64,000 nucleotides of DNA. Source: an uncultured Chlorobiaceae bacterium (GTDB taxonomy: Bacteria > Bacteroidota > Ignavibacteria > UBA10030 > SZUA-254). Made by a program: the position numbers and the translations under genes. The stretch's first letter is position 1. The number at the start of each line of letters is the position of its first letter. The stretch is taken from positions 134,450-198,449 of the forward strand of contig CAZFQL010000002.1 of the NCBI GenBank assembly GCA_964520905.1, read 5' to 3'. A model generated the notes under the pieces. The model was not told the origin of the DNA. It ran no database searches and saw only the letters and a program-made list of their open reading frames with translations. Below, piece by piece: positions 5,994-29,336 of this stretch.

Positions 5994-8546
5994 TCAGGAA
6001 TTTTCCGGCTTCGAATCATCTTCTGTTTGTTTCAACCTTAATTTTCGTCTCATCCAGGGCATCCGTATCAGTCCGAACACGATAACAATAAACGAAACAG
6101 CGTACGCACCGTGTGAAATATCGTAACCGAGATAATATACCGACGTCGGTTTAAAGCGATACTCAACTGAATGTTTGCCCGCGGGTACAACAACAGATCG
6201 AACGACATAATTTGTTTTGTAGATTTCAGTTTCATTTCCATCCACATAAGCGCTCCAGCCCGCCGGGTAATATGCATCGCTAAGAACCAGAAGTGCCGGA
6301 GTGGAACAATACGTTTCCAGAACGATCTCTTCCGACCAGTCCTTGGTGAAACGAACGAACGTCGAATCAGATTTCACCGGAGAGGTTGCAGGTTTCTTTT
6401 CTAATACCGCCATCGATTTGGGATTCCATGATGGAGCACTGAGAATGTTGAAAATTTCTGGCTTGGTGCTTGCGACAAAAATCGAGTCTACAAAAAAAGC
6501 GCGCGGCAAAACCCCGGGATTCAAGTATGTTATCATTTGTTTTGTTTGGTCAACATTTACTATCGGCATATCAGTGTTCGGTAGTTGACCCGGGACCACT
6601 ATGTACTTCGCACCGAGCATGCTTATCATGTTCATATTGAGCGGAAGTCGGGGTGGATACAATCCAAGCGAATCTATCATTTCCTGATATATTTTTAATT
6701 TTGCAGGACTATAGCCGCCGATGGAAGATATCGCATGATACATCCATGTATTGTCCTGAAATCCGGCGCCCTGACTTACAGGAAAAATACGGTAATTCGA
6801 TGTATCCGATTTTAAGAATTTAGTCGTCTGGTCGGGCTGGAAGAAATCTGCCTTAGCTGTGTTTGGTTTGGGTTCGATGAGCTTTGTATCCAGTATAAGC
6901 AAATCAACAAGCAGCACAACGATCAAAGCTGCCGTCAGCATTGTAAAGTTTAATTTTCGTTTAAGATAAGCAAGAATCAAACCGATACTCACACCAATGA
7001 TAAGAGCAAATTTTATGTAATCTTTCCAGAGTAGATCGAATCTCATTTTCTTAAGCTGGGTCAACACTTGCGGAGCTTCTGCGCCATACTGCTGTCGCAA
7101 TTGCTGAAGATCATCAGGTCTCTGGAACATTGAACCAGAGAGCGACGAATAAACTGTTTCGTTCGCGATCAACCCTATCAACAATATCGCTCCAATAACT
7201 CCAAGCGAGATGAAAAGTCCTTTCCGAAGTTTTTCGATATTGAACGATTTCGAATTTGCCCCCATCTCCGAAAGAACAGTTAGCCCGATGGCGGCTAATA
7301 TTCCGAAAGTAATCGGCATCAGATGAAGTATCAGAACCGGCACACGGAATTTGTTGAAGTACGGGAAATAGTTGAACATTAAATCGTAGAGTAGTCCGAA
7401 GTGCCGCCCGAAAGAAATGAAAAACATTATCATGGAAAAAATCACGAGAAACCATGTGAGTTTATTTCTCCTGTATATCAGCGCGAATACGAGTAATAAG
7501 ATCGGAACGACGCCAATATATACCGTGCTTTCCGTAAAAGGCATCCATCCCCAATAGAATGGTGATGCATAACCGAAGAAAGACGGAATAAGATAGTTCA
7601 TAATCTCAAATGGATGGAACGACCAGTTCGTTGCGTAATCATAATCCAAGCCGCCTGTGCTACCGGTAGTTCCACCACCACGAATTGAATATTGAGCGTA
7701 CTCTTGAGTCGGAAGATAAATATATGCTGAAATCGCCGCTCCGATTAGCAGCGCAAGCCCAACAATTACTACCGACTTAAGCGTTAAAGTTGGTTTTGAT
7801 TTGATGCTTGTTATGAGTTCAAAAAGAATGTAGAAACCAATAAGCATTAATCCATAAAAAATAACCTGAACATGCAGGGTGAAAAGCAATAACGCTGTCA
7901 CGATGGAAAGTAAACCGAAATAGAGTATATTTTTCCAGTATAAAATACGCTCACTATTTAATTGATGATATAGCTGATATGTGAATAAAAATAATAACGG
8001 GATCATTGCCAGTGCCTGAAGTTTAGACCCCTGATTCGACTGAAACACTCCAATTGCATACGGGTTAAGCATCAGTGTAAGACCAGCGACAAGAGAAGCG
8101 AGATGAGAAAACTTGAATGATCGTGAAAGCATGTACATGAAAATCCCGCCCAATAAAAGATAGATGACATCTCGCACCTCAGCCCAATTGGATGCAATAA
8201 GCTGCAAAGGAAATCGCAGTATAACATATTCTACGTAATTTATTTCTTTGGGTAAAAGCAAAGTTGAATGAATCGGTATACCTGAAAAAATATACGGTAT
8301 CCAGAAAACATCCGTGTGATTTTCTGTTGTTCTGATATGATCCATAGCTTTCGTCCAGGCATTAAATGCCGCGGCATCACCGCTGACAGCAAAAATCATT
8401 CCGCCGAAAAGAATGTCCCAGAACATGATGACCGTAATAAGCGCCATAACGCTGACGCAAATCCAGCCCTTCCTTGTTGATGAGAACCGGTCGAACCACG
8501 TTAATTCTGAACCGCGTTGTGTTGTAGTTTTATTTTTTGTTGTCAT
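5994..8546 (-). CDS. YfhO-family GT-C-like integral membrane glycosyl transferase (paralog 1)
   Basis: 850 aa with more than 12 TM helices. C-terminal motif GWSAYVDGNETEIYKTNYVVRSVVVPAGKHSVEYRFKP is characteristic of the YfhO family and is shared with 23232..25631. Confidence 0.7.
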   Translation of the reverse strand: MTTKNKTTTQRGSELTWFDRFSSTRKGWICVSVMALITVIMFWDILFGGMIFAVSGDAAAFNAWTKAMDHIRTTENHTDVFWIPYIFSGIPIHSTLLLPKEINYVEYVILRFPLQLIASNWAEVRDVIYLLLGGIFMYMLSRSFKFSHLASLVAGLTLMLNPYAIGVFQSNQGSKLQALAMIPLLFLFTYQLYHQLNSERILYWKNILYFGLLSIVTALLLFTLHVQVIFYGLMLIGFYILFELITSIKSKPTLTLKSVVIVGLALLIGAAISAYIYLPTQEYAQYSIRGGGTTGSTGGLDYDYATNWSFHPFEIMNYLIPSFFGYASPFYWGWMPFTESTVYIGVVPILLLVFALIYRRNKLTWFLVIFSMIMFFISFGRHFGLLYDLMFNYFPYFNKFRVPVLILHLMPITFGILAAIGLTVLSEMGANSKSFNIEKLRKGLFISLGVIGAILLIGLIANETVYSSLSGSMFQRPDDLQQLRQQYGAEAPQVLTQLKKMRFDLLWKDYIKFALIIGVSIGLILAYLKRKLNFTMLTAALIVVLLVDLLILDTKLIEPKPNTAKADFFQPDQTTKFLKSDTSNYRIFPVSQGAGFQDNTWMYHAISSIGGYSPAKLKIYQEMIDSLGLYPPRLPLNMNMISMLGAKYIVVPGQLPNTDMPIVNVDQTKQMITYLNPGVLPRAFFVDSIFVASTKPEIFNILSAPSWNPKSMAVLEKKPATSPVKSDSTFVRFTKDWSEEIVLETYCSTPALLVLSDAYYPAGWSAYVDGNETEIYKTNYVVRSVVVPAGKHSVEYRFKPTSVYYLGYDISHGAYAVSFIVIVFGLIRMPWMRRKLRLKQTEDDSKPENS

Positions 8547-8579
8547 AGTAATATTTTCTTAATGATGGTCAATCTATAT

Positions 8580-9716
8580 TTATTTCAATAACGGTGAGAA
8601 TAATTCAACTACATTTCTTCGGAAATGGTCAAGATCAAAATCCTCGTATCGTTTTCTGGCATTTCGACGAATGTCTTCAATATCGCACCTGACGTCGATA
8701 ATATCGGAAGTACGTGCGATCAGCTCATCAATACTGCTCCAAAGGAAACCGTCTACTCCGTGTGATACGCTTTCACGCTGACCGCCTTTATTGATAACCA
8801 CTGGAATACACCGCGCCGACATCGATTCGATTGTCGTCATGCCGAAGTGCTCGGTATTTTCAGGATTGGTTTCTTCATCTACATTATAACCCGCTGCATG
8901 CCAGAATACAGACGCTTCATTATACAACCTTACCAGCGACTCATACGGTTCATTGACATGAAAATAGACCGGATAATTTTTATTCTCAGTACGCAGTGAT
9001 TCAAGATATCCGCTGTTTGCCGGATCTTGCGCCGCACTGCCAGCGATATGATATTCCCAGCCGGAAAGCTCTTTTTGAGATGCCCGGCGAAATGCTTCTG
9101 TAAGAATATCGTATCGTTTATCGTTGTACAACCCGCGAAATATTCTACCGACACTTAAGATAATATTTTTTTTAGATATTCCCAGTCTGGAATAATCCTG
9201 GATCGGCGGATACAGTACTGTGCCGTTGACGCCATAATTACGAAGCAAAACACCGCGGACAAATTCCGAGTATACGAGAACAAGTGAAGCTTGCCGGCGC
9301 GCAAACGAGTGCAGTTGAAGACGATATATATCCTTGCCGGCTTCTTTGAATTCGCTATAAAGCATTTTTTTTAAGATAGTCGCAGGACTAATCTTCCCGT
9401 ATGGGATTTGAAGAACTTGCACCATTTTTCGGGCAGAAGTTCTAACCGCCCGAAATGTTGAAAGATTGACAAAAACATCCGCATCCCCCGCGAGTGTATC
9501 GAGTTCCTTGGAGTTGCGAACAAGCTTATATTGCACGTTAGAGAGGTTGGCACCCGAAAATTTTTCCAGAGCGAATTTCTGGATTTCATGGTTTTCGGAC
9601 AGCATAACAACTGAAGTATCTTCTAACCCTGAGAGGACTTCGGCAAGAAGCATCAGATATTTTTCGCCACCGCCAAAGGCATACCACGTTGGTGTGTATA
9701 TGAGGAGTGTTTTCAT
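8580..9716 (-). CDS. Glycosyltransferase family 4
   Basis: EX7E-type motif EHFGMTTIESMSARCIPVV and a GT-B fold C-domain. Confidence 0.8.
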   Translation of the reverse strand: MKTLLIYTPTWYAFGGGEKYLMLLAEVLSGLEDTSVVMLSENHEIQKFALEKFSGANLSNVQYKLVRNSKELDTLAGDADVFVNLSTFRAVRTSARKMVQVLQIPYGKISPATILKKMLYSEFKEAGKDIYRLQLHSFARRQASLVLVYSEFVRGVLLRNYGVNGTVLYPPIQDYSRLGISKKNIILSVGRIFRGLYNDKRYDILTEAFRRASQKELSGWEYHIAGSAAQDPANSGYLESLRTENKNYPVYFHVNEPYESLVRLYNEASVFWHAAGYNVDEETNPENTEHFGMTTIESMSARCIPVVINKGGQRESVSHGVDGFLWSSIDELIARTSDIIDVRCDIEDIRRNARKRYEDFDLDHFRRNVVELFSPLLK

Positions 9717-9723
9717 GAAAGGA

Positions 9724-10644
9724 TCAAAGTTTTAACCATCGACCTTTACCGTATTCACCGGTATAATAGCGACAGCCATCTATGATTGCAAAGATGATCG
9801 CTTTTGTCCCTGTGTAAGAATGCCACTTAATCGACATACGAACTATCTGTCTGCCATAATAAAAGAAAAGATACGGGAGATAAAGAAACCATTTTAACGG
9901 ACGACTATGTTTACGGATAAAAATTATTTTATTACGCATCGTAAAATATAGAAAAAAAGGACTATCGATTTTATTCGTGACGGACACCTTATGCCAAATT
10001 TGGGCATTTGGATTATACATGTTCCGCAAACCAAGTTTACGGGCACGCATACACCAATCCGCATCTTCATAGTAAATGAAAAGATTGTCGTCAAGTAAAC
10101 CTACTCTTTCAATTACTTCACGAGTTGCAAACATCATGCAACCTGTTGCAAGTTCTGTTTCTTCAACTTTATCATATTGTCCCTGATCTTCTTCCATAAT
10201 GCCGCGATGTATGCAATACCCGCTGTTGACCTTTAGAATTCCTCCGGCGTACCAAAATGTTTTAGGTTGAGAGTAGAAATAAATTTTGCACGATTGAAAC
10301 CCGATCGTATTATCTGCCTTTGCGAGTTCAATCAGCGGTTGTATGCAATCTTTATCGACAATAGTATCGTTATTCAGAAGCATAATAAAATCAGCGTCAC
10401 GCTCAATGGCAATTTTTATCCCTACATTATTGCCGCCGGCGAATCCTATATTTTCATTGGTACGGTGATATACTACATCGGGGAATTCAGCTTGCAGCCG
10501 TTCCCCGGAACCATCCGTTGAATTATTGTCGATAAGAACTATTTCGGTTGGTTTATACGAAACCTTCCGCAGGGATAGAATACACTCCCTCGTATGATCC
10601 TCTTGATTGAGATTAATTAAAACGATATAAACTTTATCAGCCAT
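9724..10644 (-). CDS. Glycosyltransferase family 2
   Basis: IVLIDNNSTDGS...DADFIMLLNNDTIV (DxD region). Typical GT-A GT2. Confidence 0.8.
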   Translation of the reverse strand: MADKVYIVLINLNQEDHTRECILSLRKVSYKPTEIVLIDNNSTDGSGERLQAEFPDVVYHRTNENIGFAGGNNVGIKIAIERDADFIMLLNNDTIVDKDCIQPLIELAKADNTIGFQSCKIYFYSQPKTFWYAGGILKVNSGYCIHRGIMEEDQGQYDKVEETELATGCMMFATREVIERVGLLDDNLFIYYEDADWCMRARKLGLRNMYNPNAQIWHKVSVTNKIDSPFFLYFTMRNKIIFIRKHSRPLKWFLYLPYLFFYYGRQIVRMSIKWHSYTGTKAIIFAIIDGCRYYTGEYGKGRWLKL

Positions 10645-10694
10645 TTACAATATTATATTCGATGATAGATGGACAGTCATTAATGATTTTCTGG

Positions 10695-11339
10695 TCAACA
10701 ATGACGAGCTTTGAAGATATACTGGAATGCGAGATACTCTTCAAGTTTTTGAAACATAATTAAATTTAGAAATTTCATTTTTCTACTTCCGACAACTCTT
10801 GGAAGAATAGATTCGATATGGAAACCCGCACTTGTGATTAAATCTTTCATGGATCGCAATGAGAAAAAACGAAGATGGGTGCGATCAAAAGGTCCATAAT
10901 CTTCATAATTCCATCCTTCGCGTATTAATTTTAGGATAACGGCATAGTGCCGCATGTTGGGAATGCTGCATATTATAACACCGTTGGGTTTAAGATAAGG
11001 TTTGAGTTTCCTCAAAACGGCAGCCGGTTCTAGCAGATGTTCCAGGATATCAGCAAATATAATGCAATCGAAAATCGCTCCCTGGAAAGGTAGGATCATC
11101 GTCTGGATATCTCCGGTAACGACTTGATCAAGATTCAACTTAGCTGCTTCCGCGGCAAGTATATCATACTCTATTCCGAACACTTTGCGCTCCGGAACAT
11201 CTCGTTTTAAATTTTTTCCTAAAATTCCATGGCCACATCCAACATCAAGGATCGAGAGCATCTGAGATTCAACCTGTGAAAATATTTCAGGCCTATCATT
11301 CTCATAATAACCAGCATCAAGTATAGTAGTGTTTATCAT
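10695..11339 (-). CDS. Class I SAM-dependent methyltransferase
   Basis: Motif I ILDVGCGHGILG and motif post-II FDCIIFADILEHL. 4 bp ATGA overlap with the upstream GT4. Confidence 0.75.
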   Translation of the reverse strand: MINTTILDAGYYENDRPEIFSQVESQMLSILDVGCGHGILGKNLKRDVPERKVFGIEYDILAAEAAKLNLDQVVTGDIQTMILPFQGAIFDCIIFADILEHLLEPAAVLRKLKPYLKPNGVIICSIPNMRHYAVILKLIREGWNYEDYGPFDRTHLRFFSLRSMKDLITSAGFHIESILPRVVGSRKMKFLNLIMFQKLEEYLAFQYIFKARHC

Positions 11340-12484
11340 AATAATGAATCGTAATGATTCTTATATTGCAGAGCCATCTTGGCAGCATCGAAATTCATTT
11401 CCGCTCTTTCTCTTCCTCGCTCGCCCAGCTCTTTTCTTTTTTGTTCATCCTGAATAAGGTTTTCAAGTGCATTCGCCAAGGAAAGAAAATCGTTCGGCTG
11501 GACAAACACTCCTGAGTCTCCAACAACCTCGGGGATAGAACCGCTCATCGTTGATATAACAGGTTTACCGCATGCCATACTCTCAATCAAAACATAACCG
11601 AATTGCTCCTGCCAAGTCGGGATCGGCAAACTTGGTAGAACAAAAATATCGGCAAGATTGTGAATCTTCTGCATGACGTCATACGAATGACTGCCGATCA
11701 ACTTCACATAATCATCCATCTGTAGATATTGTATCCAGTGCAGGATATTATCACGCTCTCTTCCCTTGCCGGCAATCAGAAGTTTAATCTTTTTCCTTGA
11801 TCCTGACCTGTTAAGTAGATGTCGAAAAGCGAATAGCAGATCGTAAATCCCTTTTTCCCGATATAAGTTAGCAACATACAAAACAATTATTTCGTCTTTA
11901 CCACAACCAAAGCGATTGAGAAGCTCGGGATCTTTTGACGCTGGTGAGAAATGTGTTGTGTCGATTCCCGACATCTGAATTTTAATTTTATATTCAGGCA
12001 CACCCTCTAAAATTAACGCTTCTTTAGCGCGCTGAGAAACGGCAAGAAACAAATCAGTCTTTTCGAAGACAACCTTCTTACATCTTTCAGTCGCCGGCAA
12101 ATGATGAAGGAAGGGAATATTTTCCCAAACAGTAACAACGAGTTTAAATTTTAATTGCTCTTTTACCTTCGCCGCTTGATAGGTATAATGCGATGAAGTC
12201 TCGGCGCTGTGGACGACATCGAATCCTCGCAGTGCAGCTCCCAAACCCTGCAGATCATGGAGATCGCCGAGGAAATGTATCATTGGTTTTCTCAAAAGAC
12301 GCATTCGGAGAGATTGGCCGAAAGAAAATAATTTTTTTACCTTGAATGGAATTTCACCGACGTTGAAATTATGACCGTAGCTCGCAAATCCCACAATATC
12401 ATAAGTATCCATAAGCGGTGAGAAATTTTGCATCTCCCAGCTATTCAAATAGGGACCACGAACAATGGCTAAGCGTTTTTTCAT
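11336..12484 (-). CDS. Glycosyltransferase family 4
   Basis: EQFGYVLIESMACGKPVIST (EX7E) C-domain. Confidence 0.8.
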   Translation of the reverse strand: MKKRLAIVRGPYLNSWEMQNFSPLMDTYDIVGFASYGHNFNVGEIPFKVKKLFSFGQSLRMRLLRKPMIHFLGDLHDLQGLGAALRGFDVVHSAETSSHYTYQAAKVKEQLKFKLVVTVWENIPFLHHLPATERCKKVVFEKTDLFLAVSQRAKEALILEGVPEYKIKIQMSGIDTTHFSPASKDPELLNRFGCGKDEIIVLYVANLYREKGIYDLLFAFRHLLNRSGSRKKIKLLIAGKGRERDNILHWIQYLQMDDYVKLIGSHSYDVMQKIHNLADIFVLPSLPIPTWQEQFGYVLIESMACGKPVISTMSGSIPEVVGDSGVFVQPNDFLSLANALENLIQDEQKRKELGERGRERAEMNFDAAKMALQYKNHYDSLL

Positions 12485-12579
12485 GAAATACTTTTTAACT
12501 ACTACGTAATTGTCATTTATTTGTCTGAATCATACATCTTTTTCGCATTTCCAAAGTAAGAGAATAATACATCAGAATC

Positions 12580-12617
12580 AACATTAAAACAAAGCCACCC
12601 TAAAATTGGGTGGCTTT
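12580..12617 (-). terminator. Rho-independent terminator after the secreted beta-propeller gene
   Basis: Perfect 10 bp stem aaagccaccc-taaaatt-gggtggcttt, followed on the minus strand by T-rich sequence. Confidence 0.55.
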
Positions 12618-12645
12618 AAGATTTATTTTAGATCTTGGGCAAAAA

Positions 12646-13947
12646 TTATTTTACTAGTGCCACCTTCTGTGTACCAATAAATTCGCCCGCTTTGATACGG
12701 CACAAATAGATGCCGCTGGCAAAATTGCCGGCATTCCACACTACTGAATAATGCCCAGCCATTTGCTGCCCATCGACAAGAGTAGCTACCTCCTGACCTA
12801 GTGAATTGTATATTGTGATATTTACCTGGCGTTCGTGCACAAGATCGTATTCAATGATTGTTTTGGGATTGAATGGATTAGGATATATCTGGTACAATTT
12901 AAATTCTTTTGGCATCTCTTTAACTTCTTTCACTTCTAACGGTGTGTACTCCGACGTTGCATAACCGATTTGCCAATAATCGCTTGCCATCCTACCGGAG
13001 TACCACATTTTGAACTGATTATCCTCAAACAATACGCTTAACATCCCTAATGTAGCCTCGTCCCAAGTCCCAGAACCACCTAAACTGATAATCGGGTTGT
13101 TTAAATATCGATGCCACGTTAATCCATCAGTCGAAGTAGCATATCCAATCTGGTATCCATATGCACCAGGTGCACCGAAATAAAACATATGATATGTATT
13201 CCCTATTTTAATAACTCTGGAATCTGTAACAAGGTATGATTCCCACAAATTAGATTTATCTGTAAAAAAAATCGGGTTACTTATATGCTTAACCCATGTA
13301 TAACCGTCTGACGACGTAGCATAACCAATCGCAGTAGTATCATGACTGGTGCCAGAATACCACATCTGATACATACCAGCACTATCTCTAATGACGCATG
13401 GAGAATGAACAGCATCACCATCCCATCCCGTTGACAAGCCGTGCACCAGTACCGGATTGTTTGAATATTTCGTCCAATGAATTCCGTCGGGAGATGTTGC
13501 TAAACCTATTGAAGCTTTCCATAAACTATTGAATCCCCCATAATAGAGCCGATACCCTGTAGTATCTTTAAGAACTGTTCCACCCCAAATAAAACTTTCT
13601 TCAAAACTTCCCGTGATGCCTCTTTTTAGAACTGGATTCTTTTGATATGGGAACCAATTAATTCCATCTTCCGAAATCGCATAACCTATACTATATTGCC
13701 TGGAATAATAATTTTCGTATCCAACATACAACATTTTGTAGATTCCATTGTCATGGATTACTGCCGGCATCCAAGCTTGGCGACTATCGAAACTACCGTC
13801 TATTCCATATGCACTCACGCCATTAAATACTCCGGAAGAAAGCACAGGATTATTGGTGTACTTTTGCCAAGTAATCTGGCTAAAGAGTTGTTCTTTCAGA
13901 AAAAGAGAACAACTTAATGAAAGAATAAAAAACAACTTAGTACGCAT
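12646..13947 (-). CDS. Secreted five-bladed beta-propeller glycoside hydrolase-like protein (GH43/GH130/GH32 clan type) with T9SS C-terminal sorting domain
   Basis: Signal peptide MRTKLFFILSLSCSLFL (start taken at the ATG preceded by GGAGGA). Four to five repeats of IGYATS-x-DG-x-(T)W...NP(V/I) . C-terminal FKLYQIYPNPFNPKTIIEYDL...VALVK is a Por/T9SS CTD. Confidence 0.55.
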   Translation of the reverse strand: MRTKLFFILSLSCSLFLKEQLFSQITWQKYTNNPVLSSGVFNGVSAYGIDGSFDSRQAWMPAVIHDNGIYKMLYVGYENYYSRQYSIGYAISEDGINWFPYQKNPVLKRGITGSFEESFIWGGTVLKDTTGYRLYYGGFNSLWKASIGLATSPDGIHWTKYSNNPVLVHGLSTGWDGDAVHSPCVIRDSAGMYQMWYSGTSHDTTAIGYATSSDGYTWVKHISNPIFFTDKSNLWESYLVTDSRVIKIGNTYHMFYFGAPGAYGYQIGYATSTDGLTWHRYLNNPIISLGGSGTWDEATLGMLSVLFEDNQFKMWYSGRMASDYWQIGYATSEYTPLEVKEVKEMPKEFKLYQIYPNPFNPKTIIEYDLVHERQVNITIYNSLGQEVATLVDGQQMAGHYSVVWNAGNFASGIYLCRIKAGEFIGTQKVALVK

Positions 13948-14002
13948 GGCATCCTCCATATTATTGTTGATAGAGTAAATTATTTAATAATACTACAATT
14001 AT

Positions 14003-14674: not shown

Positions 14675-14680
14675 TGGAAA

Positions 14681-16081: not shown

Positions 16082-16196
16082 TGTTATTTTTTTTGTCTGT
16101 GTAGGCAGAGCTTCTACCGAATATTATATTTTAAACTCATTGTTGTTAATAAACCGGTGCGGGTAAACTAGATAGTCACTAATTTATATTCTAATA

Positions 16197-17186: not shown

Positions 17187-17226
17187 TGTATTATCCTTCT
17201 AGAGAATGCGTAAAATATAATTTTTT

Positions 17227-18081: not shown

Positions 18082-18164
18082 CTTTCAATCCTTAACTAAA
18101 AATTTATATTCTAACGAATGGAAATATAACGATTTTCCCCTCGTGTTTCAACGGCAGAATCTGT

Positions 18165-19001: not shown

Positions 19002-19003
19002 TG

Positions 19004-20110: not shown

Positions 20111-20226
20111 GATTTAATTTTTAGTAGATTGATTAATAGAAATAAGTTTTATATTGTCATTGACTTTCATTTCAGACAATAACCGATCGATTCAGTTATA
20201 AATCGATATTATTGATAAACTTCTTA

Positions 20227-21348: not shown

Positions 21349-21522
21349 ACCATATTATTTCGTAATTTGAAAAATATATTCAAGTTTTTTCTGAATTGTT
21401 AACGAATCACCATTGGAAGATACAAGATTTTTAAACTGTTTACAAAATCCAACAGGTTTAAGCACACTCGGGCTTTTCCAATCCTTTGATAGATAATATA
21501 TACAGATGATAAGTAGATATTC

Positions 21523-22257
21523 TTAAGGTTTTTGTGCATTGATAAGAACAAGCGGGAGGAAACGTCGTATTGGAGAAAACCATTCAAGTCCCTTCTGGAT
21601 AGTTGAGATACCGGGGATATTATCTAATAATTGAGGTGGAAAAAATCCGGATCGTTTAATTTGGATATTAATAAATCCTACATCCCGTAATATTCTTGTC
21701 GTTGTGCTTGCACTGAACGTGAACATTCCTTTTTCCGCTTCCCATGTCATCTCGCGGCTAAACATCACCTGCAATAGAAAAAGCGGATTCAGACGATTCG
21801 GTTCTAGAAAACCAAGTCGTCCTCCTGATTTTAGCGTATCGAAAATTAGTTCAAACAACTTCACGTGGTTTGGAATATGATGAAGTATGAAGAAGCCGCT
21901 TATCGCATCGAACGATGAAGGACCGAAATCCAGTGGAAGATCGAAAACACTCGCACATGCAATATCGAGATTCGTCCCTGGGGCAGATTGACGTTCTAAT
22001 GCTCCAAGCAGCGCTTGAGACGTGTCAAGTGCCACAACTTTTTTGCAGTACGGTGCCAGGTGGAGTGTGAAACGTCCTGCACCCGCACCGATATCAAGAA
22101 CGGTATCGGAATTTGAAAGCGTTAACCCGCGAACCATCTGGTCGGTAAGCAGCTTTGCATAAGTGCTGTTCGGTTTGAACAATAGGTGGGTGTGTTTCTC
22201 GGCATCGATATAGAAATCATTCTGGACTTTCTGCCATTGTTCAGTTATTGACGCCAT
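21523..22257 (-). CDS. Class I SAM-dependent methyltransferase
   Basis: VLDIGAGAGRFTLHLA...VVALDTS. Confidence 0.75.
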   Translation of the reverse strand: MASITEQWQKVQNDFYIDAEKHTHLLFKPNSTYAKLLTDQMVRGLTLSNSDTVLDIGAGAGRFTLHLAPYCKKVVALDTSQALLGALERQSAPGTNLDIACASVFDLPLDFGPSSFDAISGFFILHHIPNHVKLFELIFDTLKSGGRLGFLEPNRLNPLFLLQVMFSREMTWEAEKGMFTFSASTTTRILRDVGFINIQIKRSGFFPPQLLDNIPGISTIQKGLEWFSPIRRFLPLVLINAQKP

Positions 22258-22265
22258 AAAAAAAA

Positions 22266-23192
22266 TTATTGTTTGTCGAAACCGATTTTTTCTTTTATCA
22301 CATAGAGCGGACGCTGTTTGACTTCATCATAAATACGCCCAAGGTATTCACCAATTATACCGAGCGTCAACAGAATCAGACCACCCATGAATAGAATGGT
22401 GAAGACCGGAGAGGCCCATCCCGGAGTTGCTTTGTCTGTAAAAAGTTTCGCATATAAGACATACAGCATGCCTATGAAGGCAAGAAATGCAATGCCGACA
22501 CCGACATATGTTGCAAGGCGAAGCGGTGCATTCGAAAACGAAAAAATTCCATCGAACGCAAGATGCATCAACCCACGGATAGTCATTTGCGGTTTGCCTG
22601 CGAAGCGTGCTTCACGGTCGTACTCAATACTAGTCTGCTTGAAACCCGCCCATGCTCGCATCCCGGCAATGTAGCGGTTCCTTTCTGGCATCGCCTGCAA
22701 TACGCCGACGACTTTACGATCCATGAGAGAGAAGTTTCCCGCTTCCATCGGAATTGGTATGGAAGAGAACATCACCATCAATTTATAGAACGAGTGGAAC
22801 GCAAATCGTTTAAGTGCATTCTCCTTCCGGCTTCGCTTGACAGTATAGATGACATCAAATCCATCATGCCACAGTGTAATCAATTTGGGAAGAAGTTCGG
22901 GCGGATCTTGCAAATCGCCATCCATGAGAATGACGGAGTCTCCTTTGGCAGAATCAATGCCTGCTGATATCGCAATCTGGTGGCCAAAGTTACGAGCCAG
23001 GTCGATCACTTTCACATGCGATTCCTGCTGAGCACAACGTCTGAGTTCATTTAGAGAATTATCACGACTACCGTCGTTGATATATATAATTTCATAAGAC
23101 CCGGAGACCTGAGCCATTGCCTGCGTGATTCGGCGATGAAGTTCGGGGATTGTTTCCCGTTCATTATAAATTGGAATGACAATAGATATCAT
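22266..23192 (-). CDS. Polyprenyl-phosphate sugar synthase, GT2 (GtrB/ArnC/DPM1-like) with C-terminal TM anchor
   Basis: ISIVIPIYNERE...INDGSRDNS...MDGDLQDPPE and two C-terminal TM helices. Lies immediately downstream of the yfhO-like gene (gene pair). Confidence 0.8.
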   Translation of the reverse strand: MISIVIPIYNERETIPELHRRITQAMAQVSGSYEIIYINDGSRDNSLNELRRCAQQESHVKVIDLARNFGHQIAISAGIDSAKGDSVILMDGDLQDPPELLPKLITLWHDGFDVIYTVKRSRKENALKRFAFHSFYKLMVMFSSIPIPMEAGNFSLMDRKVVGVLQAMPERNRYIAGMRAWAGFKQTSIEYDREARFAGKPQMTIRGLMHLAFDGIFSFSNAPLRLATYVGVGIAFLAFIGMLYVLYAKLFTDKATPGWASPVFTILFMGGLILLTLGIIGEYLGRIYDEVKQRPLYVIKEKIGFDKQ

Positions 23193-23231
23193 AATAAGCT
23201 CATCACAAATTAAGAATATATTTTCACATCC

Positions 23232-25631
23232 TCAAGCGGATGTGGGAGTACTCAGAGGTTTTCGTTTCCTCGCGTACAGAATAATAAGCCCTACCACACA
23301 AAATCCAAGTGTCGATAGGGAGATGGTTGCTCCTTGATAAAACGACGTCGGTTCATATCGCAACTCGACCGTATGCTCACCTTTATTGACTACAAGTGCA
23401 CGTAAACTCCAATCTGCACGGTACACTGGGGTCGCTTCACCGTCAACATATGCATTCCAGCCCGGGAAATAAATTTCGCTCAGTACCAATATCCCTTTCT
23501 TGGGTGTGAAGACTTTTAAACTAATTGTATTATTGGTATAAGATTGAAAAACTGACCTCGCCCCAGAGCTGATTGTGGTGTCACTTAAAAGATCATTGGT
23601 TGCACCTCTCAATGTCACGACATATCTTGGATCGAATTGGCTGCTACATATGAAGAGACTTTCCTGCTGCGCCGTTGAAAATGTTTTATAATTATAAACA
23701 AAGAATGCTCTCGGTACATATGTTGAATCGACCGCAAGACGTGATTGCAGCCGGAGTTGACCCTGAACACTCACTGTATCCAATTTCAATCGGTACTTAG
23801 CATTCAATAAATCGTACGATCTCATGCCGACCGGATATCTCCACTGTAACCCAAGCTGTGAATATCCTTCGAGTAAAAATATTTTATCCATCATTCCCTG
23901 ATTCCGGTCAAGGAGTATCATATTGCTGTTGCGCATATTGATACGGAAATACTCCGACTTCCCTTCTTCCTTCCACATCTGGATTAGCTCTGCCCGTTGG
24001 TTGAAATGTTCATCGGGATTGATTTTTCCGTTGTTCTGATCAAATCCAAAGATATACATATCGAGAAATTGGACTAAAAATAGAAGCACAATACCGAAAG
24101 TGGAAGATAATTTTCTACGCCATAATAGAAAAAGAATTGATAGTGAGACGAACACAATAATAGTTGAAATTAATGTCTGGCTTTGTGCAATGTCATATGC
24201 AACAGGTAATGCTATGCGGGACGATTCAATTCTTAAAGCACCGACATTAACTTGATCTAGAATAAAGCTATCTACAAGACGCATTTGGACAGTTACTGTG
24301 ATTAACAAAGCCAATACCCCGATCACGATCATAACTTTAAGATAGAATTTTTCCTTCACCTTCGAAAAAAGCAATTCCTGTAGACCGAAACCGCTCAGAA
24401 AAGCAACAGCAAAAACATAGAAGAATCCCCACCTGCCTAAGGAGCGAAACTTGTCAAAACCAGGAACGTAGTTGAAAAAAAAACTATGGACAAAGAAATG
24501 ATCACCAAGAGCATAAAGAAGCGCAAAGAATGCAAATCCTGCAACTACTGCAATGTGTCGGTTTTTCTTAAAAAACTTTAACGCAAAAAGCGCGAGCATT
24601 AAACCAGGAATACCCGTATAGATACACGTCTCCCAGAAATTCCAGTTATTCTCCGGTCCCCAATAAGGGGTCGGATTTTCTGATCCAAGTGCATTTGACG
24701 ACCCGAAGAATTTTGGAACAAGCACTGTGATTAGTTGTTGCCACGATAGTTCCCCTTCTGTCGATTTTGCAAACGATAATTCCTCTCGAACGGAGTAACT
24801 TGTCAATTCATTGGTCGGTAGTAACTGAACAGCACTTAGCCCAACTGCTATTACAATAATCCCCAAAACAAGAAGCGAGAGTTGAAGACTCTGCTTCGTT
24901 ACATTTTCGTTTCCTATATTTCGTTGTTCTCGAATGAAAGAAATCAATTCGACAATAAAGTAGACGAATAAAAAAAGCAGGAAATATAAAGTAATCTGAA
25001 TATGTCCGCTGCAAACAACTAATGACAGAACAAGCCCTCCGATGATCATCGAAGTTAGCGTCCGCGTTTTCAATGTCTTATGGAATAAGAGAACAACAAG
25101 CGGCATCCACGCTGCCTGGCAGATAATAACAAGATGTATGATGTGTACAATCATAAATCCGGAGAGCATATAAACAAGCCCGCTGAAGGCAGATGGAATT
25201 TTCGAGACACCGAAGGCACGCATACAATAGAACATAGTAATGCCGGCTAAGACCACGTGGACAAGAATATACATCTCAACATACCAGAAATTAAGCTTCC
25301 CGGCAGAAACAAATGGCACAAGAAGCAAATGTGGAAGGTAACACGACGTACCAGTAATATCTGCTAAAAACGGCATACCTGAAAAAGTATACGGATTCCA
25401 GAGCGGGATCTCACCGTTCGTTAGCGCAACACTCGCGAAATTTCTATATGGATAAAACTGATAGATGAAGTCTTCCCAAAGAAATGCCGACTGAAAAATA
25501 AGTTCTCTGAAGAAAATTGCTGCAAGAACCGCGAAAACCGCAAACCACTGCCATTCTCGAAGGGAGGCAATCCAATCATTAGTATTGACAAAGGTGACTT
25601 GTGGCTCTATCTTCTTTTTCTGTTTCGTCAT
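23232..25631 (-). CDS. YfhO-family GT-C-like integral membrane glycosyl transferase (paralog 2)
   Basis: 799 aa polytopic protein. C-terminal GWNAYVDGEATPVYRADWSLRALVVNKGEHTVELRYEP matches paralog 1 and the YfhO family. Confidence 0.7.
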   Translation of the reverse strand: MTKQKKKIEPQVTFVNTNDWIASLREWQWFAVFAVLAAIFFRELIFQSAFLWEDFIYQFYPYRNFASVALTNGEIPLWNPYTFSGMPFLADITGTSCYLPHLLLVPFVSAGKLNFWYVEMYILVHVVLAGITMFYCMRAFGVSKIPSAFSGLVYMLSGFMIVHIIHLVIICQAAWMPLVVLLFHKTLKTRTLTSMIIGGLVLSLVVCSGHIQITLYFLLFLFVYFIVELISFIREQRNIGNENVTKQSLQLSLLVLGIIVIAVGLSAVQLLPTNELTSYSVREELSFAKSTEGELSWQQLITVLVPKFFGSSNALGSENPTPYWGPENNWNFWETCIYTGIPGLMLALFALKFFKKNRHIAVVAGFAFFALLYALGDHFFVHSFFFNYVPGFDKFRSLGRWGFFYVFAVAFLSGFGLQELLFSKVKEKFYLKVMIVIGVLALLITVTVQMRLVDSFILDQVNVGALRIESSRIALPVAYDIAQSQTLISTIIVFVSLSILFLLWRRKLSSTFGIVLLFLVQFLDMYIFGFDQNNGKINPDEHFNQRAELIQMWKEEGKSEYFRINMRNSNMILLDRNQGMMDKIFLLEGYSQLGLQWRYPVGMRSYDLLNAKYRLKLDTVSVQGQLRLQSRLAVDSTYVPRAFFVYNYKTFSTAQQESLFICSSQFDPRYVVTLRGATNDLLSDTTISSGARSVFQSYTNNTISLKVFTPKKGILVLSEIYFPGWNAYVDGEATPVYRADWSLRALVVNKGEHTVELRYEPTSFYQGATISLSTLGFCVVGLIILYARKRKPLSTPTSA

Positions 25632-25643
25632 ACAATTATATAA

Positions 25644-26720
25644 TCAAGATAAAAGCGATTTAATTGATCCGAATACCCTCTCAACCGAAATGTACTGCAT
25701 ACAATTATTTTCGCAAGTCGGCGAATAGAAACAATTGCAATCAAAATCCGGCTCGATAATTTCACCGCGTCCGTATAGTTCGAACTCATATTTATTGAAA
25801 ATATTATTGAACAAGACAAGCTTCTTCTTCAACCCTATAGCAATGTGCATAGCCATTGTAACCGCTGTTACCACAAGGTCGCATTGGTTTACCTCGCTAA
25901 TAAACCGGTTGAGCGGGAAATGTCCGAGGTATATTGCGTTGCTTGCCATTGAGAGTTTCAAATTTTTTTGATGTTCCTGTTCACCCCCCAGAAGAAGCGG
26001 TATATATCCGGCTTTACGCAACTTCTTTGCAAGCGCGATCCAATTCTTTTCATCCCATAATCGTGAAGTCCACCTGCCGCCGCAACCTGTATTCAATCCG
26101 ATAATCTTTTTGCGCTTCGGTAGCTTCCAGGCATATTCCTTTACACCCGGCATGACGTACTCTTCACCGTCGAATGTATACCCGCAAATTTCGAACATCT
26201 CTTCCTGATAGCTTTTAGTGTTTGACTTGCTCAAATCATCGAATACCCCTGTGAGATATTTATGCTCTGCCTGAATATTTAAGGGACGGCACTTTCCTTT
26301 CTGTAGTGTGAATCCTTTCTTTATGCGTGCCGATACGCTGACACAGAGGGCACAAGCTTCTTTATCTTTATCCAGATTGATAAGAACATCAAACTGCACC
26401 GTTTGCAAAATCGCTAAACTTTGAGGTGTAAAAGGTAAAATAACATCTACACTTTTGGGAACTACTTCAGGCGTCAACGTTAGCCACCAAATTTCTGCCG
26501 AGGGTTCTATCGTTTTTAATTTATGTAAGAGCGGGGTCGTTCTAATTACGTCTCCGATCGCGCCGAGTTTGACGATCAATATTTTTTTGCCGGTCGGCTG
26601 GTAATAAGCGCACTCTTTACCTCGTTTATCAACGCAATGCACTTTATGTATTTTATGCGGTTTACACGGTATATCGCCGCGGAAATGGCGGCAATCGTAT
26701 TTTATATCTTTCACTTTCAT
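25644..26720 (-). CDS. Glycosyltransferase family 9 (heptosyltransferase-like) with Cys-rich N- and C-terminal extensions
   Basis: KILIVKLGAIGDVIRTTPLL is the GT9 hallmark. An extra N-terminal CRHFRGDIPCKPHKIHKVHCVDKRGKEC and a C-terminal DCNCFYSPTCENNC cluster are present. Confidence 0.7.
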   Translation of the reverse strand: MKVKDIKYDCRHFRGDIPCKPHKIHKVHCVDKRGKECAYYQPTGKKILIVKLGAIGDVIRTTPLLHKLKTIEPSAEIWWLTLTPEVVPKSVDVILPFTPQSLAILQTVQFDVLINLDKDKEACALCVSVSARIKKGFTLQKGKCRPLNIQAEHKYLTGVFDDLSKSNTKSYQEEMFEICGYTFDGEEYVMPGVKEYAWKLPKRKKIIGLNTGCGGRWTSRLWDEKNWIALAKKLRKAGYIPLLLGGEQEHQKNLKLSMASNAIYLGHFPLNRFISEVNQCDLVVTAVTMAMHIAIGLKKKLVLFNNIFNKYEFELYGRGEIIEPDFDCNCFYSPTCENNCMQYISVERVFGSIKSLLS

Positions 26721-26722
26721 AT

Positions 26723-28156
26723 TTAGTCTGATAGTTTTATTACTCTGATACCGTATCCTGAATCCAATCCTGCAACATAGACTGTTTTAAGATTTAACCG
26801 GTTAAGAACTGTGTCGCTGTATAAAAGAAAATTTAGTTGTGGACGATAAACCCGGACAACCCGCGCGCTGACAACGAGATACTTAGCGCGAACTTGATGA
26901 CAGAATGCGAGAATACTGTCAACCGGATCGTTTGGCATCGAGATGTACGATCCGCCCGCGTAAAACGCTGTGAATGGTTTGCGGTCGACAAAAATATCAC
27001 CTTCATGCGTCATCAGTTTCATAGCGATCCCTGCAGTGCAAAACTCAGTCGTCCCTTGATCCGGTATCGCCGCATAAGAGATAGTCGATGAATAACCCGC
27101 GATAATGATAACCGCGCTTAAAATCGCGATCCAATTTTTATTAAATCCGCTGACAAGGATAAATGAAAATATTGCCAGAAATGGGATATATGGGATGATA
27201 AATCGTTCGTTCGGATCAAGTCCGAATACAGGCAATATAAAAAGCATTGGGATACTTGCCAACAACATGTTCCTTTTTTTGATCATACCGAAAATACCGG
27301 CAATTACTAACGGGATGCCTGCAAATTTCAGGAAATGTTTTCCGTATTCCAATAATCTTGCGGGATAATACTGTAAACCCGAATTTATCCGATCTGATAA
27401 AGTAACCGCCGGAGCATTAGAAGCTTCATGCGCAACATTGATGCGCCAATCCTTTTCCCACACTCGAATATTCATGGTCTTTGGACTTATCGTCCATTCT
27501 CCGGTTTGAATACGTAAAAATAAAATGTACGGTAACACAAGAAGGAAAAAACTTGCCAGATAAAAACCGGCTGATTTCCACTTTCGGTTTTTGATGAAAT
27601 CAAAAAAGATCAGGATGCTAAAAAAAAGCAGCGCTTCGGGGCGGGTGAGGAATGCAAGACCGCTTGTAATACCGAATAATAGAGGACGGCGTTTTACAAA
27701 AAAGAAGAAGGCAGTTATTTCAAGAAAGATAAATAATGCCTCCGTAAGAGTAACCGCACCGTATCGAATTATTAAAGGATTAAATACAACGACCGATACT
27801 GCAAGTACAGAGAGCAAAGAATTCATATAATGCCGAGCCAAATAGAACAACGGTAAAGGTAGGAGAGCGCCTGCAACTACCGAGACCATCTGTGCCGCTC
27901 TAACGCCATCGGGGATCACAAGTCGAAACAGTTCAATAAAAAGTGAATACCCGGGATGAAAAACCGATTGCCAAGACGCATCGCGGAAATAATTGATGTA
28001 ATAAGCTCCATCCCAATTAACAAACGGATGATACTGTGTCACATATAGGCGAATCAACATACCACCCGCACACAATATCCCGATTAAGATCAATTCTATT
28101 TTTTTATCCCAGCAAGCAACAGATACTTTGGCGGCTTTGGATTGTAATTTTGCCAT
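26723..28156 (-). CDS. GT-C fold membrane glycosyl transferase (ArnT/PMT, GT39/GT83-like)
   Basis: 477 aa with about 11 TM helices and the typical N-terminal YHPFVNWDGAYY region. Immediately follows the ArnC-like gene. Confidence 0.6.
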   Translation of the reverse strand: MAKLQSKAAKVSVACWDKKIELILIGILCAGGMLIRLYVTQYHPFVNWDGAYYINYFRDASWQSVFHPGYSLFIELFRLVIPDGVRAAQMVSVVAGALLPLPLFYLARHYMNSLLSVLAVSVVVFNPLIIRYGAVTLTEALFIFLEITAFFFFVKRRPLLFGITSGLAFLTRPEALLFFSILIFFDFIKNRKWKSAGFYLASFFLLVLPYILFLRIQTGEWTISPKTMNIRVWEKDWRINVAHEASNAPAVTLSDRINSGLQYYPARLLEYGKHFLKFAGIPLVIAGIFGMIKKRNMLLASIPMLFILPVFGLDPNERFIIPYIPFLAIFSFILVSGFNKNWIAILSAVIIIAGYSSTISYAAIPDQGTTEFCTAGIAMKLMTHEGDIFVDRKPFTAFYAGGSYISMPNDPVDSILAFCHQVRAKYLVVSARVVRVYRPQLNFLLYSDTVLNRLNLKTVYVAGLDSGYGIRVIKLSD

Positions 28157-28166
28157 AGTACTGCAA

Positions 28167-29336
28167 CTATTTCCAGAATTCCCGTATCGAATACTCTTTC
28201 TCTGGCGTTCTACGCGTCTTCGTTATCATCTCACCAATTAATCCGATTGAAATAAATTGTACCCCGACAATAATCAATAATATGCCGCCGAAAAACAAAG
28301 GACGATTACTAAGCGCCATACCTTCGGTAAACTTCAGGGTGACAAGATATAGATCGATAGCAAAACCTGCCAGGAAAAATACCATACCCCAGAAGCCGAA
28401 AAGATGCAGGGGCCTCTGCATATAACGCGTGGTAAAAATAACCGTCAACAGATCGAGAAATCCTTTCCAAAATCTACCTATACCATATTTCGTTCTGCCA
28501 TATTTTCGCTGATGATGTTGCACGGGGATTTCACCGACTTTATATCCGAGCCAATGAGCGAGTACCGGTATATAACGATGCAGTTCCCCGTAAATTTCAA
28601 CCTCTTTCACAACTTCTTTTCTATATGCTTTCAGACCACAATTGAAGTCGTGGATTTTTATCCCGGTTATGATAGATGTGACAAAATTAAAAAACCGCGA
28701 CGGTATAGTTTTAGATATAGGATCACGTCGTTTTTTCTTCCAGCCCGAGATTAAGTCATATCCTTTTTTAATTTCGTTTACTAAATTAGGGATTTCATTC
28801 GGATCGTCCTGCAGATCGGCATCCATCGTGATTATAATATCACCTTCGGCTTTTGTAAAACCGACGGAAAGTGCCGCCGACTTGCCGTAGTTCCGACGGA
28901 AGCGAATAATCTTCACACGGCGATCCCGATTTCGTAATTCAAGAAGAACGCGCATCGATCCATCGGTACTGCCATCGTCAACGAAGATCACCTCAAATCG
29001 TCCGCTCCGAGTTAAGACATTGCGTATTTTATCAAACAACTCACGCAACGATTGCTCTTCGTTGTAAAGAGGAATCACTACCGATATTTCTTTGCTGCCA
29101 GTCCTATATTGCAGACTTTCAGATTGATGTGTTTGATGCCGACGTTGTTTGTATCGGCTTTGCCTGCCATCGTTCGCTTTATTCTTCTTCGGCATTCCAG
29201 ATGGTTCCTGCTGAGAAGATGTTGGTTGTGGGGAGGATCGAGTCTCTGGAGATAATTCACCTCCAGGGGTCATCTTTCTTTCATCTGTTTCATCGTTCGA
29301 AGCAGGGATTTCTTCATTTTGATTGTATTCGTTCAT
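28167..29336 (-). CDS. Polyprenyl-phosphate sugar synthase, GT2 (ArnC/Ppm1-like) with about 85 aa low-complexity N-terminal extension and C-terminal TMs
   Basis: ISVVIPLYNEE...VDDGSTDGS...MDADLQDDPNEIP...SGWKKKRRDPISK and two C-terminal TM helices. The N-terminus is S/P/Q/T/E-rich. First gene of the co-oriented block. Confidence 0.75.
   Translation of the reverse strand: MNEYNQNEEIPASNDETDERKMTPGGELSPETRSSPQPTSSQQEPSGMPKKNKANDGRQSRYKQRRHQTHQSESLQYRTGSKEISVVIPLYNEEQSLRELFDKIRNVLTRSGRFEVIFVDDGSTDGSMRVLLELRNRDRRVKIIRFRRNYGKSAALSVGFTKAEGDIIITMDADLQDDPNEIPNLVNEIKKGYDLISGWKKKRRDPISKTIPSRFFNFVTSIITGIKIHDFNCGLKAYRKEVVKEVEIYGELHRYIPVLAHWLGYKVGEIPVQHHQRKYGRTKYGIGRFWKGFLDLLTVIFTTRYMQRPLHLFGFWGMVFFLAGFAIDLYLVTLKFTEGMALSNRPLFFGGILLIIVGVQFISIGLIGEMITKTRRTPEKEYSIREFWK

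Follow-up and report, generated by a model that had tools for sequence, protein, structure and literature searches.

Protein O-glycans of the Bacteroidota are attached at D(S/T)(L/I/V/T/A/S/M) and are often methylated, and in the Bacteroidales the loci that encode them combine conserved with variable genes (PMC12871550). Both the oligosaccharyltransferase (OTase) and the ligase that joins outer to core glycan were still undiscovered according to this 2025 review (PMC12871550). A second set of relevant systems comprises the three-component modules, namely GtrA/GtrB/Gtr* of Shigella and Salmonella, CsbB/GtcA/YfhO of Bacillus and Listeria, and GtrB/PgtC2 and PgfS/PgfM1 of streptococci. Three-component addition of side chains to polymers is widespread (PMC11127046), and pairs of YfhO-family and GtrB-type proteins in streptococci O-glycosylate Ser/Thr-rich protein regions (PMC11092751). 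Here, we describe a locus that appears to work like a hybrid of the Bacteroidota O-glycan loci of the LFG type and the Gtr/YfhO three-component systems. It occupies positions 5994..29336, on the minus strand, of a 64-kb stretch of DNA from an uncultured bacterium of the Ignavibacteria class (contig CAZFQL010000002.1; the whole stretch is called the window below). What is new is a class-wide envelope-glycan locus anchored by a glycosyltransferase (GT) of the YfhO family, a GT-C enzyme, with an unannotated family of GT-C proteins bearing tetratricopeptide repeats (TPR) attached to it.

The class-wide distribution emerged from a scan in which each species was represented by one genome; it gave 80 related loci with 10-kb flanks, about 1.3 Mb in all. 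All window proteins were compared with these loci by tblastn, and presence counts refer to the 45 of them that span 18 kb or more. Most of the 80 species share the syntenic order ArnC-like–GT9–YfhO–(GtrB)–GT4–(WecB)–GT2. The first gene (28167..29336; Pfam Glycos_transf_2, 131 bits) encodes an ArnC/AglJ-like polyprenyl-phosphate sugar synthase of family GT2, with about 80 low-complexity residues at the N-terminus and two C-terminal transmembrane helices; it is present in 40 of the 45 long loci at 60-82% amino-acid identity. The GT9-like gene (25644..26720), whose product is a GT-B enzyme of the heptosyltransferase family (Pfam Glyco_transf_9, 34 bits; PDB 3tov, E 2e-4), is found in 33 at 56-75% identity, and the YfhO-family gene (23232..25631, here YfhO-799) in all 45. 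The remaining members are a GtrB/PgfS-like synthase of family GT2 with two C-terminal transmembrane helices (22266..23192; 22 loci; NCBIfam PgfS 265 bits, cut-off 500), a GT4 enzyme (20227..21348; 37 loci; Pfam Glycos_transf_1, 83 bits), the semi-conserved UDP-GlcNAc 2-epimerase WecB (19004..20110; 21 loci, 66-85% identity; Pfam Epimerase_2, 405 bits) and a soluble GT2 enzyme (18165..19001; 37 loci; Pfam Glycos_transf_2, 78 bits). Homologues of the GT9-like protein are about 70% identical throughout the class, which implies a conserved inner structure of the glycan. The proximal half of the locus is thus a conserved class-wide core and the distal half is variable, and GC content is also lower in the distal genes (0.37-0.39 vs 0.44-0.45).

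A preliminary description of this DNA had emphasized two copies of a pair formed by a polyprenyl-phosphate sugar synthase and a GT-C enzyme. Both pairs are indeed there. The ArnC-like gene adjoins an accessory GT-C gene of the PMT_2 family (26723..28156; Pfam 33 bits, cut-off 26.1; 10 transmembrane helices), as the GtrB-like gene adjoins YfhO-799. An iterated hidden Markov model (HMM), however, finds the PMT_2 gene in only 5 of the 80 related loci, and a fixed ArnC–PMT_2 pairing as the ancestral arrangement was rejected on these grounds; the conserved order is ArnC–GT9–YfhO.

YfhO-799 (Pfam YfhO 68.7 bits, cut-off 28.5) has 13 transmembrane helices and a beta-rich periplasmic domain. Its AF2 model (pLDDT 80) has only GT-C_A enzymes as top Foldseek matches, with ArnT first, followed by EmbB, AglB, STT3 and PglB, and with PMT also among them. 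The motif W52-x-D54-F55 is invariant in 26 homologues and places an acidic residue in the predicted first extracytoplasmic loop. The family has 594 homologues, and nearly all that are named come from Ignavibacteria or from metagenome-assembled genomes labelled 'Bacteroidota bacterium'. A second, divergent member (5994..8546, here YfhO-850) closes the locus with no synthase next to it. Its Pfam score (24.8 bits) falls below the cut-off, but hhalign aligns it with the YfhO alignment over 715 columns (probability 100%, E 4e-58), bearing out the preliminary description of this gene as YfhO-like; both proteins can be assigned by sequence to the YfhO family, PF09586. PDB sequence searches with the YfhO profile, the PMT_2 protein and the TPR-bearing proteins returned no membrane-domain relatives.

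How tightly are YfhO and its synthase linked? The closest relative of the locus (L079, contig JAGVIE010000061) is 92-94% identical in DNA sequence on either side of the YfhO region (window 29393..25671 and 21461..17255). Between these flanks, the 4.2 kb that carry YfhO, GtrB and a methyltransferase in the window (21461..25671) are exchanged for 5.1 kb in the relative (9940..15079), which encode a YfhO protein (43% identity), a GtrB protein (65% identity) and a TPR-bearing membrane protein. The breakpoints coincide with gene boundaries. Since YfhO and GtrB were replaced jointly, they behave as one exchangeable unit, and the swap implies that two cassette types circulate within the class. The type in the relative (YfhO'–GtrB'–TPR-bearing protein) is common to four other loci (L071, L009, L041, L078). 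The methyltransferase MT4 of the window (21523..22257; Pfam Methyltransf_11, 58 bits) is restricted to cassettes of the other type (YfhO–GtrB–methyltransferase; L002, L003, L004, L023, L025).

The swap resembles that of serotype-converting Gtr cassettes, in which the synthase–GT-C pair is likewise a swappable unit, and the exchange of YfhO–GtrB among near-identical strains points to surface-antigen variation. The locus also shares with the three-component systems the juxtaposition of a GtrB-type GT2 synthase and a YfhO GT-C, and the ArnC-like and PMT_2 genes repeat that juxtaposition. The differences are equally clear. The locus carries no small GtrA/GtcA-like flippase (no intergenic gap exceeds 174 bp, no small ORF with four transmembrane helices is present, and the only flippase-type gene is wzx); without GtrA, it falls short of a complete Gtr module. 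Moreover, the pair forms part of a conserved multi-GT locus instead of standing alone or being phage-borne, and the host is diderm, whereas YfhO has so far been studied only in Firmicutes.

Two paralogous proteins of about 655 residues, with 10-12 transmembrane helices followed by a C-terminal TPR domain, are encoded on the plus strand at 793..2772 and 2793..4760, convergent with the locus. We refer to them as TM-TPR proteins. Pfam gives no match for their membrane part, and their matches in PDB sequence searches are confined to the TPR part. Because the AlphaFold model built with 23 homologues is confident (pLDDT 87.8, pTM 0.83), the membrane domain is assigned a GT-C_A fold on the strength of that model, with the TPR predicted to face the extracytoplasmic side. 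This architecture is that of the TPR-bearing GT-Cs TMTC1-4 and TMEM260 of eukaryotes and TfpW of P. aeruginosa, although no sequence similarity links the membrane domain to DUF1736, TMEM260 or TfpW; TMTC, TMEM260 and TfpW use proteins as acceptors. A set of invariant charged residues (G105-D106, E206, R389-D-W-D392) would fit an enzyme. The family comprises 1,904 clusters at E<=1e-3, and the members named in a cluster look-up are from Ignavibacteriales and Zixibacteria. In 11 of the 80 species, a TM-TPR homologue lies inside the locus, directly 3' of YfhO/GtrB, and YfhO-850-like genes stand at the distal end of several loci (L012, L040, L057, L064). The neighbouring TM-TPR genes at 793..4760 are therefore likely to belong functionally to the system, as judged from gene positions in relatives.

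The distal half of the locus invites comparison with the LFG loci of Bacteroidales and Tannerella (BF4298-4306 of B. fragilis; the 27-kb cluster of T. forsythia). A first distal block consists of the S-adenosylmethionine (SAM) methyltransferase MT3 (17227..18081), a short-chain dehydrogenase/reductase (SDR) epimerase (16197..17186), a Wzx flippase of the MOP family (14681..16081; Pfam 118 bits), the methyltransferase MT2 (14003..14674) and a secreted GH130 enzyme (12646..13959). The second consists of a GT4 (11336..12484), MT1 (10695..11339), a soluble GT2 (9724..10644), another GT4 (8580..9716) and YfhO-850, and all assignments except the last are by Pfam. These genes vary among relatives. 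Methyltransferases recur, and divergent Wzx-like proteins are found with an iterated HMM in 39 of the 80 loci, a number that plain tblastn undercounts (4 of 45). Like the LFG loci, this one is co-oriented, encodes WecB and several SAM methyltransferases alongside Wzx and GT4 and GT2 enzymes, joins conserved genes to a species-variable block, and has no recognizable polymerase or initiating transferase; in both cases, the exported proteins of the host clade carry a D(S/T)(hydrophobic) sequon signature, here a statistical one. Nevertheless, the locus was rejected as a member of the family defined in Bacteroidales. Its Wzx is no orthologue of the O-glycosylation Wzx (NCBIfam NF058658, 28.1 bits vs a cut-off of 720), and metG, which in LFG loci lies directly upstream, is missing from the window, which has a tRNA-Met at 4958..5032. 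LFG loci end in two GTs that are conserved between species; the conserved GTs of this clade are its own, GT9-like, GT4 and GT2. Described LFG loci are also without polyprenyl-phosphate sugar synthases and GT-Cs, whereas two synthases and five GT-C-type proteins are encoded here when the flank is included, and the host belongs to the Ignavibacteria and not to the Bacteroidia.

The sequon signature was obtained by comparing observed with expected counts of D[ST][AILVMT] in predicted exported and cytoplasmic proteins of the window and the 80 loci. For exported proteins of the class (n=110), the ratio is 1.87 (bootstrap confidence interval (CI) 1.66-2.12), and weighting by 49 homology clusters leaves it at 1.83 (CI 1.41-2.27). 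The corresponding value is 1.19 for cytoplasmic proteins (n=547) and 1.01 (CI 0.72-1.34) for exported proteins of E. coli K-12 run through the same pipeline (n=32). Among exported proteins of the class, aspartate is the most enriched residue at the first position. With glutamate in its place, the motif is underrepresented (E[ST]h, 0.57), and in reverse order it gives a neutral value (0.95). Enrichment at the third position is seen for L (2.46), I (2.38), T (1.66), V (1.64) and A (1.42), and depletion for N, P and charged residues. The check on secreted proteins of the window that the preliminary description had proposed gave 11 motifs against 4.8 expected in its five exported proteins. One M1-family peptidase (57899..59836), which ends in a sorting tail for secretion by the type IX system (T9SS), has six matches vs 1.8 expected and is a candidate glycoprotein reporter. 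As a statistical signature, the enrichment would extend the Bacteroidota O-glycosylation sequon to the Ignavibacteria; we found no paper stating the D(S/T)(A/I/L/V/M/T) sequon for this class.

Glycans on proteins of the class are known from metaproteomics. In anammox reactors, multiple Ignavibacteria bacterium OLB4 proteins were assigned oligosaccharides that contain heptose and methyl-deoxyhexose, and a different type of glycan was assigned to UTCHB3 (10.1101/2020.12.03.409086). A later preprint gives Ignavibacteria glycan masses of about 1290 Da and about 1300 Da, the former with a marker ion for nonulosonic acid and the latter with one for heptose. Taken together, the sequon enrichment and the published glycoproteomics mean that genes for a protein glycan with heptose and methyl sugars must exist somewhere, and the GT9-like enzyme and the several methyltransferases of this locus fit such a glycan.

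The pathway logic of the preliminary description, in which cytoplasmic assembly of a lipid-linked oligosaccharide is followed by flipping by Wzx and by the action of GT-C enzymes in the periplasm, holds very probably, with two polyprenyl-phosphate sugar synthases feeding the GT-Cs. Gene families, folds, topologies, class-wide synteny, the cassette swap and the sequon enrichment are observed; from here on, we infer the order of steps, the sugars, the GT-C of the final transfer and the protein acceptor. WecB and the SDR epimerase would supply nucleotide sugars on the cytoplasmic face. A conserved inner glycan would be put together on a polyprenyl-phosphate carrier by the proximal GT9-like, GT4 and GT2 enzymes. 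The GT4 and GT2 enzymes encoded distally, together with the four methyltransferases, would extend it by a strain-specific outer part before Wzx flips the lipid-linked product. The ArnC-like and GtrB-like synthases would make two polyprenyl-phosphate monosaccharides, from which the PMT_2 and YfhO GT-Cs could add single sugars in the periplasm. Finally, a GT-C without a synthase of its own, either YfhO-850 or a TM-TPR protein, might transfer or ligate the glycan to its acceptor, with Ser/Thr of D(S/T)(hydrophobic) sequons on exported proteins as the proposed destination. The GT-C genes had all been put forward earlier as OTase candidates. Those that adjoin their own polyprenyl-phosphate sugar synthase are expected to be single-sugar transferases and not OTases, and the reasonable candidates for OTase or ligase are only the unpaired ones, YfhO-850 and the TM-TPR proteins.

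That proteins are the main acceptor, the locus being a general O-glycosylation system of the class, is the reading that we favour, tentatively. The enrichment on exported proteins, the metaproteomics and the precedents speak for this part of the preliminary description, and so do the layout of conserved and variable genes and the failure to find Wza, Wzc or a phosphoglycosyltransferase in the window or the related loci (see below). Several points weigh against it. The tie between protein glycans and this locus, as opposed to another locus of the genome, is inferential throughout, and the Bacteroidales LFG hallmarks are missing, as described above. The sequon test relies on heuristic signal-peptide calls, on one negative-control organism and on no positive control, and its sample, the 1.3 Mb, consists of loci selected for carrying this locus. 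Neither a GtrA-like flippase for the polyprenyl-phosphate sugars nor an initiating transferase is part of the locus. Anchoring of T9SS cargo needs a dedicated surface glycolipid, and the locus could encode that instead. All GT9 enzymes that we know to have been characterised act on the inner core of lipopolysaccharide (LPS), and pairs of the ArnC/ArnT type classically modify lipid A.

The last two points lead to the main rival, an LPS or lipooligosaccharide locus for core and outer glycan, in which the GT9-like, GT4 and GT2 enzymes would extend lipid A carrying 3-deoxy-D-manno-octulosonic acid (Kdo) directly, on the cytoplasmic side. After flipping by MsbA, the synthases and the PMT_2 and YfhO GT-Cs would modify either lipid A or the core from the periplasmic side, in the manner of ArnC/ArnT, and the variable part with Wzx would make a short O-unit, which may serve as a T9SS-anchoring glycolipid. 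We consider this possible, if rather unlikely. Membership in GT9 and the ArnC-like and ArnT-clan matches agree with it, as do the label 'ADP-heptose:LPS heptosyltransferase' that homologues of the GT9-like protein bear in IMG and the strong class-wide conservation of the proximal module, which would be expected of an inner core. T9SS cargo genes occur in and close to the locus, and the YfhO–GtrB swap is like the Gtr-type serotype conversion of O antigens (PMC11127046). That the window and the 80 related loci all lack a phosphoglycosyltransferase (see below) is explained equally well, because GTs that act directly on lipid A–Kdo need none.

The heptosyltransferase match itself is weak, however. 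Besides its 34 bits in Pfam, the GT9-like protein scores 48 bits with the NCBIfam model for heptosyltransferase I (WaaC; cut-off 185) and 36 bits with that for heptosyltransferase II (cut-off 135). No Kdo transferase (GT30), Wzy_C/WaaL-type ligase, Lpx or Lpt gene was found in the 64-kb window with Pfam and NCBIfam, and identification with a waa-type inner-core cluster was rejected on the heptosyltransferase scores and the absence of GT30 and Wzy_C/WaaL. A distinctive feature of the GT9-like protein is the motif D-C-R-x-F-R-G-D-x-P-C-K-P-H-K…H-C…C in residues 9-40, whose cysteines (Cys10, Cys19, Cys29 and Cys37) are invariant across 54 orthologues and suggest a metal-binding cap. A Cys4 iron site, at another position, also occurs in the protein-heptosylating TibC/AAH enzymes.

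Comparison with the Arn pathway (ArnC/ArnT, with the related Lgm and Flm) is similarly divided. An ArnC-like synthase lies directly upstream of a GT-C of the ArnT/PMT clan, and ArnT is the best structural match of YfhO-799. Yet the synthase scores 214 bits with the ArnC model (cut-off 529), the PMT_2 partner is missing from most related loci, and ArnA, ArnB, ArnD, ArnE and ArnF are lacking here. The Pfam and NCBIfam scans of the window found no ArnA, ArnB or ArnD and no ArnT equivalog, and no Arn equivalog threshold is reached; membership in the lipid A pathway was rejected. WecB, several O-methyltransferases and TPR-bearing GT-Cs are also more typical of protein-glycan or O-unit pathways, and an LPS locus would leave the protein glycan with heptose and methyl sugars to be encoded elsewhere. 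Our literature search on LPS of Ignavibacteria yielded nothing usable. The two destinations are nonetheless compatible and not mutually exclusive: some bacteria use one lipid-linked glycan for both LPS and proteins.

The presence of Wzx raises another question, whether the locus makes a polymer. Proteins of the WcaJ, MraY/WecA, Wza, Wzc, Wzx and Wzy types were sought by phmmer with E. coli seeds (E<=1e-3) in the window and the 80 related loci. Wza and Wzc are absent from the window by both Pfam (ORFs of at least 120 residues) and phmmer, and from the 80 loci by phmmer; the Wzx seeds, taken from the same E. coli region, do match their counterparts. The E. coli Wzy seeds matched nothing in the window or the 80 loci, but they are too divergent for this negative to carry meaning. 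The earlier statement that no Wzy, Wzz or Wza is visible thus stands for Wza, and extends to Wzc, but has no force for Wzy. A Wzx-dependent exopolysaccharide, capsule or S-layer glycan, with polymerase, chain-length regulator and exporter encoded elsewhere and the GT-Cs adding side chains after polymerisation, would be in keeping with Wzx, with the generic exopolysaccharide-type matches of the GT4 and GT2 enzymes (HpsO, EpsE and EpsD models, all below threshold) and with the wide occurrence of three-component side-chain addition; some relatives also have one unclassified polytopic ORF per locus that could be Wzy. Against this stand the absence of Wza and Wzc even with 10-kb flanks included, a proximal module (60-82% identity class-wide) far more conserved than exopolysaccharide or capsule loci usually are, and five GT-C-type proteins, too many for side-chain decoration alone. 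We regard a role in exopolysaccharide or capsule as the least likely of the readings considered, and identification with a Wzx/Wzy-dependent O-antigen, capsule or exopolysaccharide locus was rejected: the Wzx match (118 bits) has no WcaJ-, MraY/WecA-, Wza- or Wzc-type proteins beside it.

If a lipid-linked glycan is built here, how is it started? No initiating phosphoglycosyltransferase of the WcaJ or MraY/WecA type was found in the window or the 80 loci by phmmer at E<=1e-3. The gene for an initiator may lie in another part of the genome, as in E. coli, where wecA lies away from the glycan locus. Alternatively, the ArnC/AglJ-like GT2, whose gene comes first and is the best conserved, may itself initiate the glycan on undecaprenyl monophosphate, by analogy with haloarchaea, where AglJ starts the glycan on dolichyl phosphate. 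In the haloarchaeal Agl pathway, cytoplasmic GTs then extend the glycan, AglB transfers it, and AglD and AglS add a final sugar derived from dolichyl-phosphate mannose. The resemblance is one of logic only: in both cases, a Dpm1/AglJ-like GT2 comes first and is accompanied by soluble GTs, a flippase, GT-Cs and a second lipid-phosphate-sugar synthase, with no phosphoglycosyltransferase. Extending the analogy, the conserved module might be a bacterial counterpart of Agl, in which the Cys4-bearing GT9-like enzyme, the GT4 and the GT2 would extend a monophosphate-linked glycan and a YfhO-family or TM-TPR GT-C would be the O-oligosaccharyltransferase or outer-glycan ligase. The lack of a phosphoglycosyltransferase in 80 loci would then follow, because the GT2 would initiate. 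We think this improbable. The first protein scores 82 bits with the AglJ model (cut-off 325), no AglB/STT3 orthologue is present, and we know of no demonstration of a monophosphate-linked oligosaccharide donor in bacteria.

All ORFs of at least 120 residues in the window were scanned with Pfam, and the locus genes also with NCBIfam and with a hydropathy scan for transmembrane helices. No locus gene reached an NCBIfam equivalog cut-off, and for this reason sugar specificities are not assignable. The locus itself comprises 19 ORFs in one orientation, which encode three GT4 (at 8580, 11336 and 20227), two soluble GT2 (at 9724 and 18165), the GT9-like enzyme and the two polyprenyl-phosphate sugar synthases; the others are WecB, the SDR epimerase, Wzx, four SAM methyltransferases, the PMT_2 GT-C, the two YfhO GT-Cs and the secreted GH130. 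Every coordinate in the preliminary description coincides with an ORF, and Pfam and NCBIfam agree with its WecB, SDR epimerase, GT9 and Wzx flippase, as Pfam does with its four methyltransferases (at 10695, 14003, 17227 and 21523). Its figures of 20 genes and four GT4 are slightly too high because the gene at 12646..13959 does not encode a GT. As a fourth GT4 it was rejected, since the product has a signal peptide, a GH130 domain and a T9SS C-terminal sorting domain. Three GT2 had also been counted, in place of two soluble ones plus the two synthases. GH130 is the family of beta-1,2-mannoside phosphorylases and mannosidases, and this member, found in only 2-3 related loci, could trim or remodel a surface glycan. 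With longest-ORF calls, the several 4-bp overlaps reported earlier reduce to one, between MT1 (10695..11339) and the GT4 gene at 11336..12484, and the gaps are otherwise 2-174 bp. On the minus strand, a terminator scan revealed a strong hairpin resembling an intrinsic terminator at 12618..12590, 3' of the GH130 gene, and the locus is therefore probably transcribed as at least two units.

The surroundings of the locus offer a few further observations. The roughly 1 kb upstream of the ArnC-like gene (29337..30390) contains neither a convincing ORF nor anything that matches Rfam, and is presumably a promoter or regulatory region common to the divergent 4Fe-4S gene at 30391. Beyond it, three proteins (30948..32114, 37225..38043 and 38080..39243) consist of response-regulator receiver domains fused to domains like the glycine-cleavage H-protein, an unusual output domain. 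They flank a cytochrome c7/4Fe-4S/NrfD module (32169..34813), and near them a histidine kinase (35344..37215) has a zinc ribbon inserted between HisKA and HATPase. At the other end, the tRNA-Met (4958..5032, minus strand), the only match of Rfam and tRNA scans, and a small Zn-ribbon-like ORF (5289..5690, plus strand) stand between the locus and the TM-TPR pair. A copy of this ORF, 56% identical, adjoins the YfhO-850-like gene in L040.

The search for the OTase or ligase of the Bacteroidota is thereby narrowed, in a sister class, to a few GT-C candidates: two types of YfhO protein and the TM-TPR family, with its roughly 1,900 clusters. What makes them credible is that the same sequon signature is found on exported proteins and that glycans with heptose and methyl sugars are known from metaproteomics. 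YfhO, previously a protein of Firmicutes studies, here anchors a conserved locus for envelope glycans of a diderm lineage. If the locus serves LPS, it would define the core-oligosaccharide pathway of the Ignavibacteria. If, on the other hand, the Agl-like scheme is correct, a GT-C of the YfhO or TM-TPR family would glycosylate D(S/T)(hydrophobic) sequons in the Ignavibacteria, and homology would extend this to other members of the FCB group.

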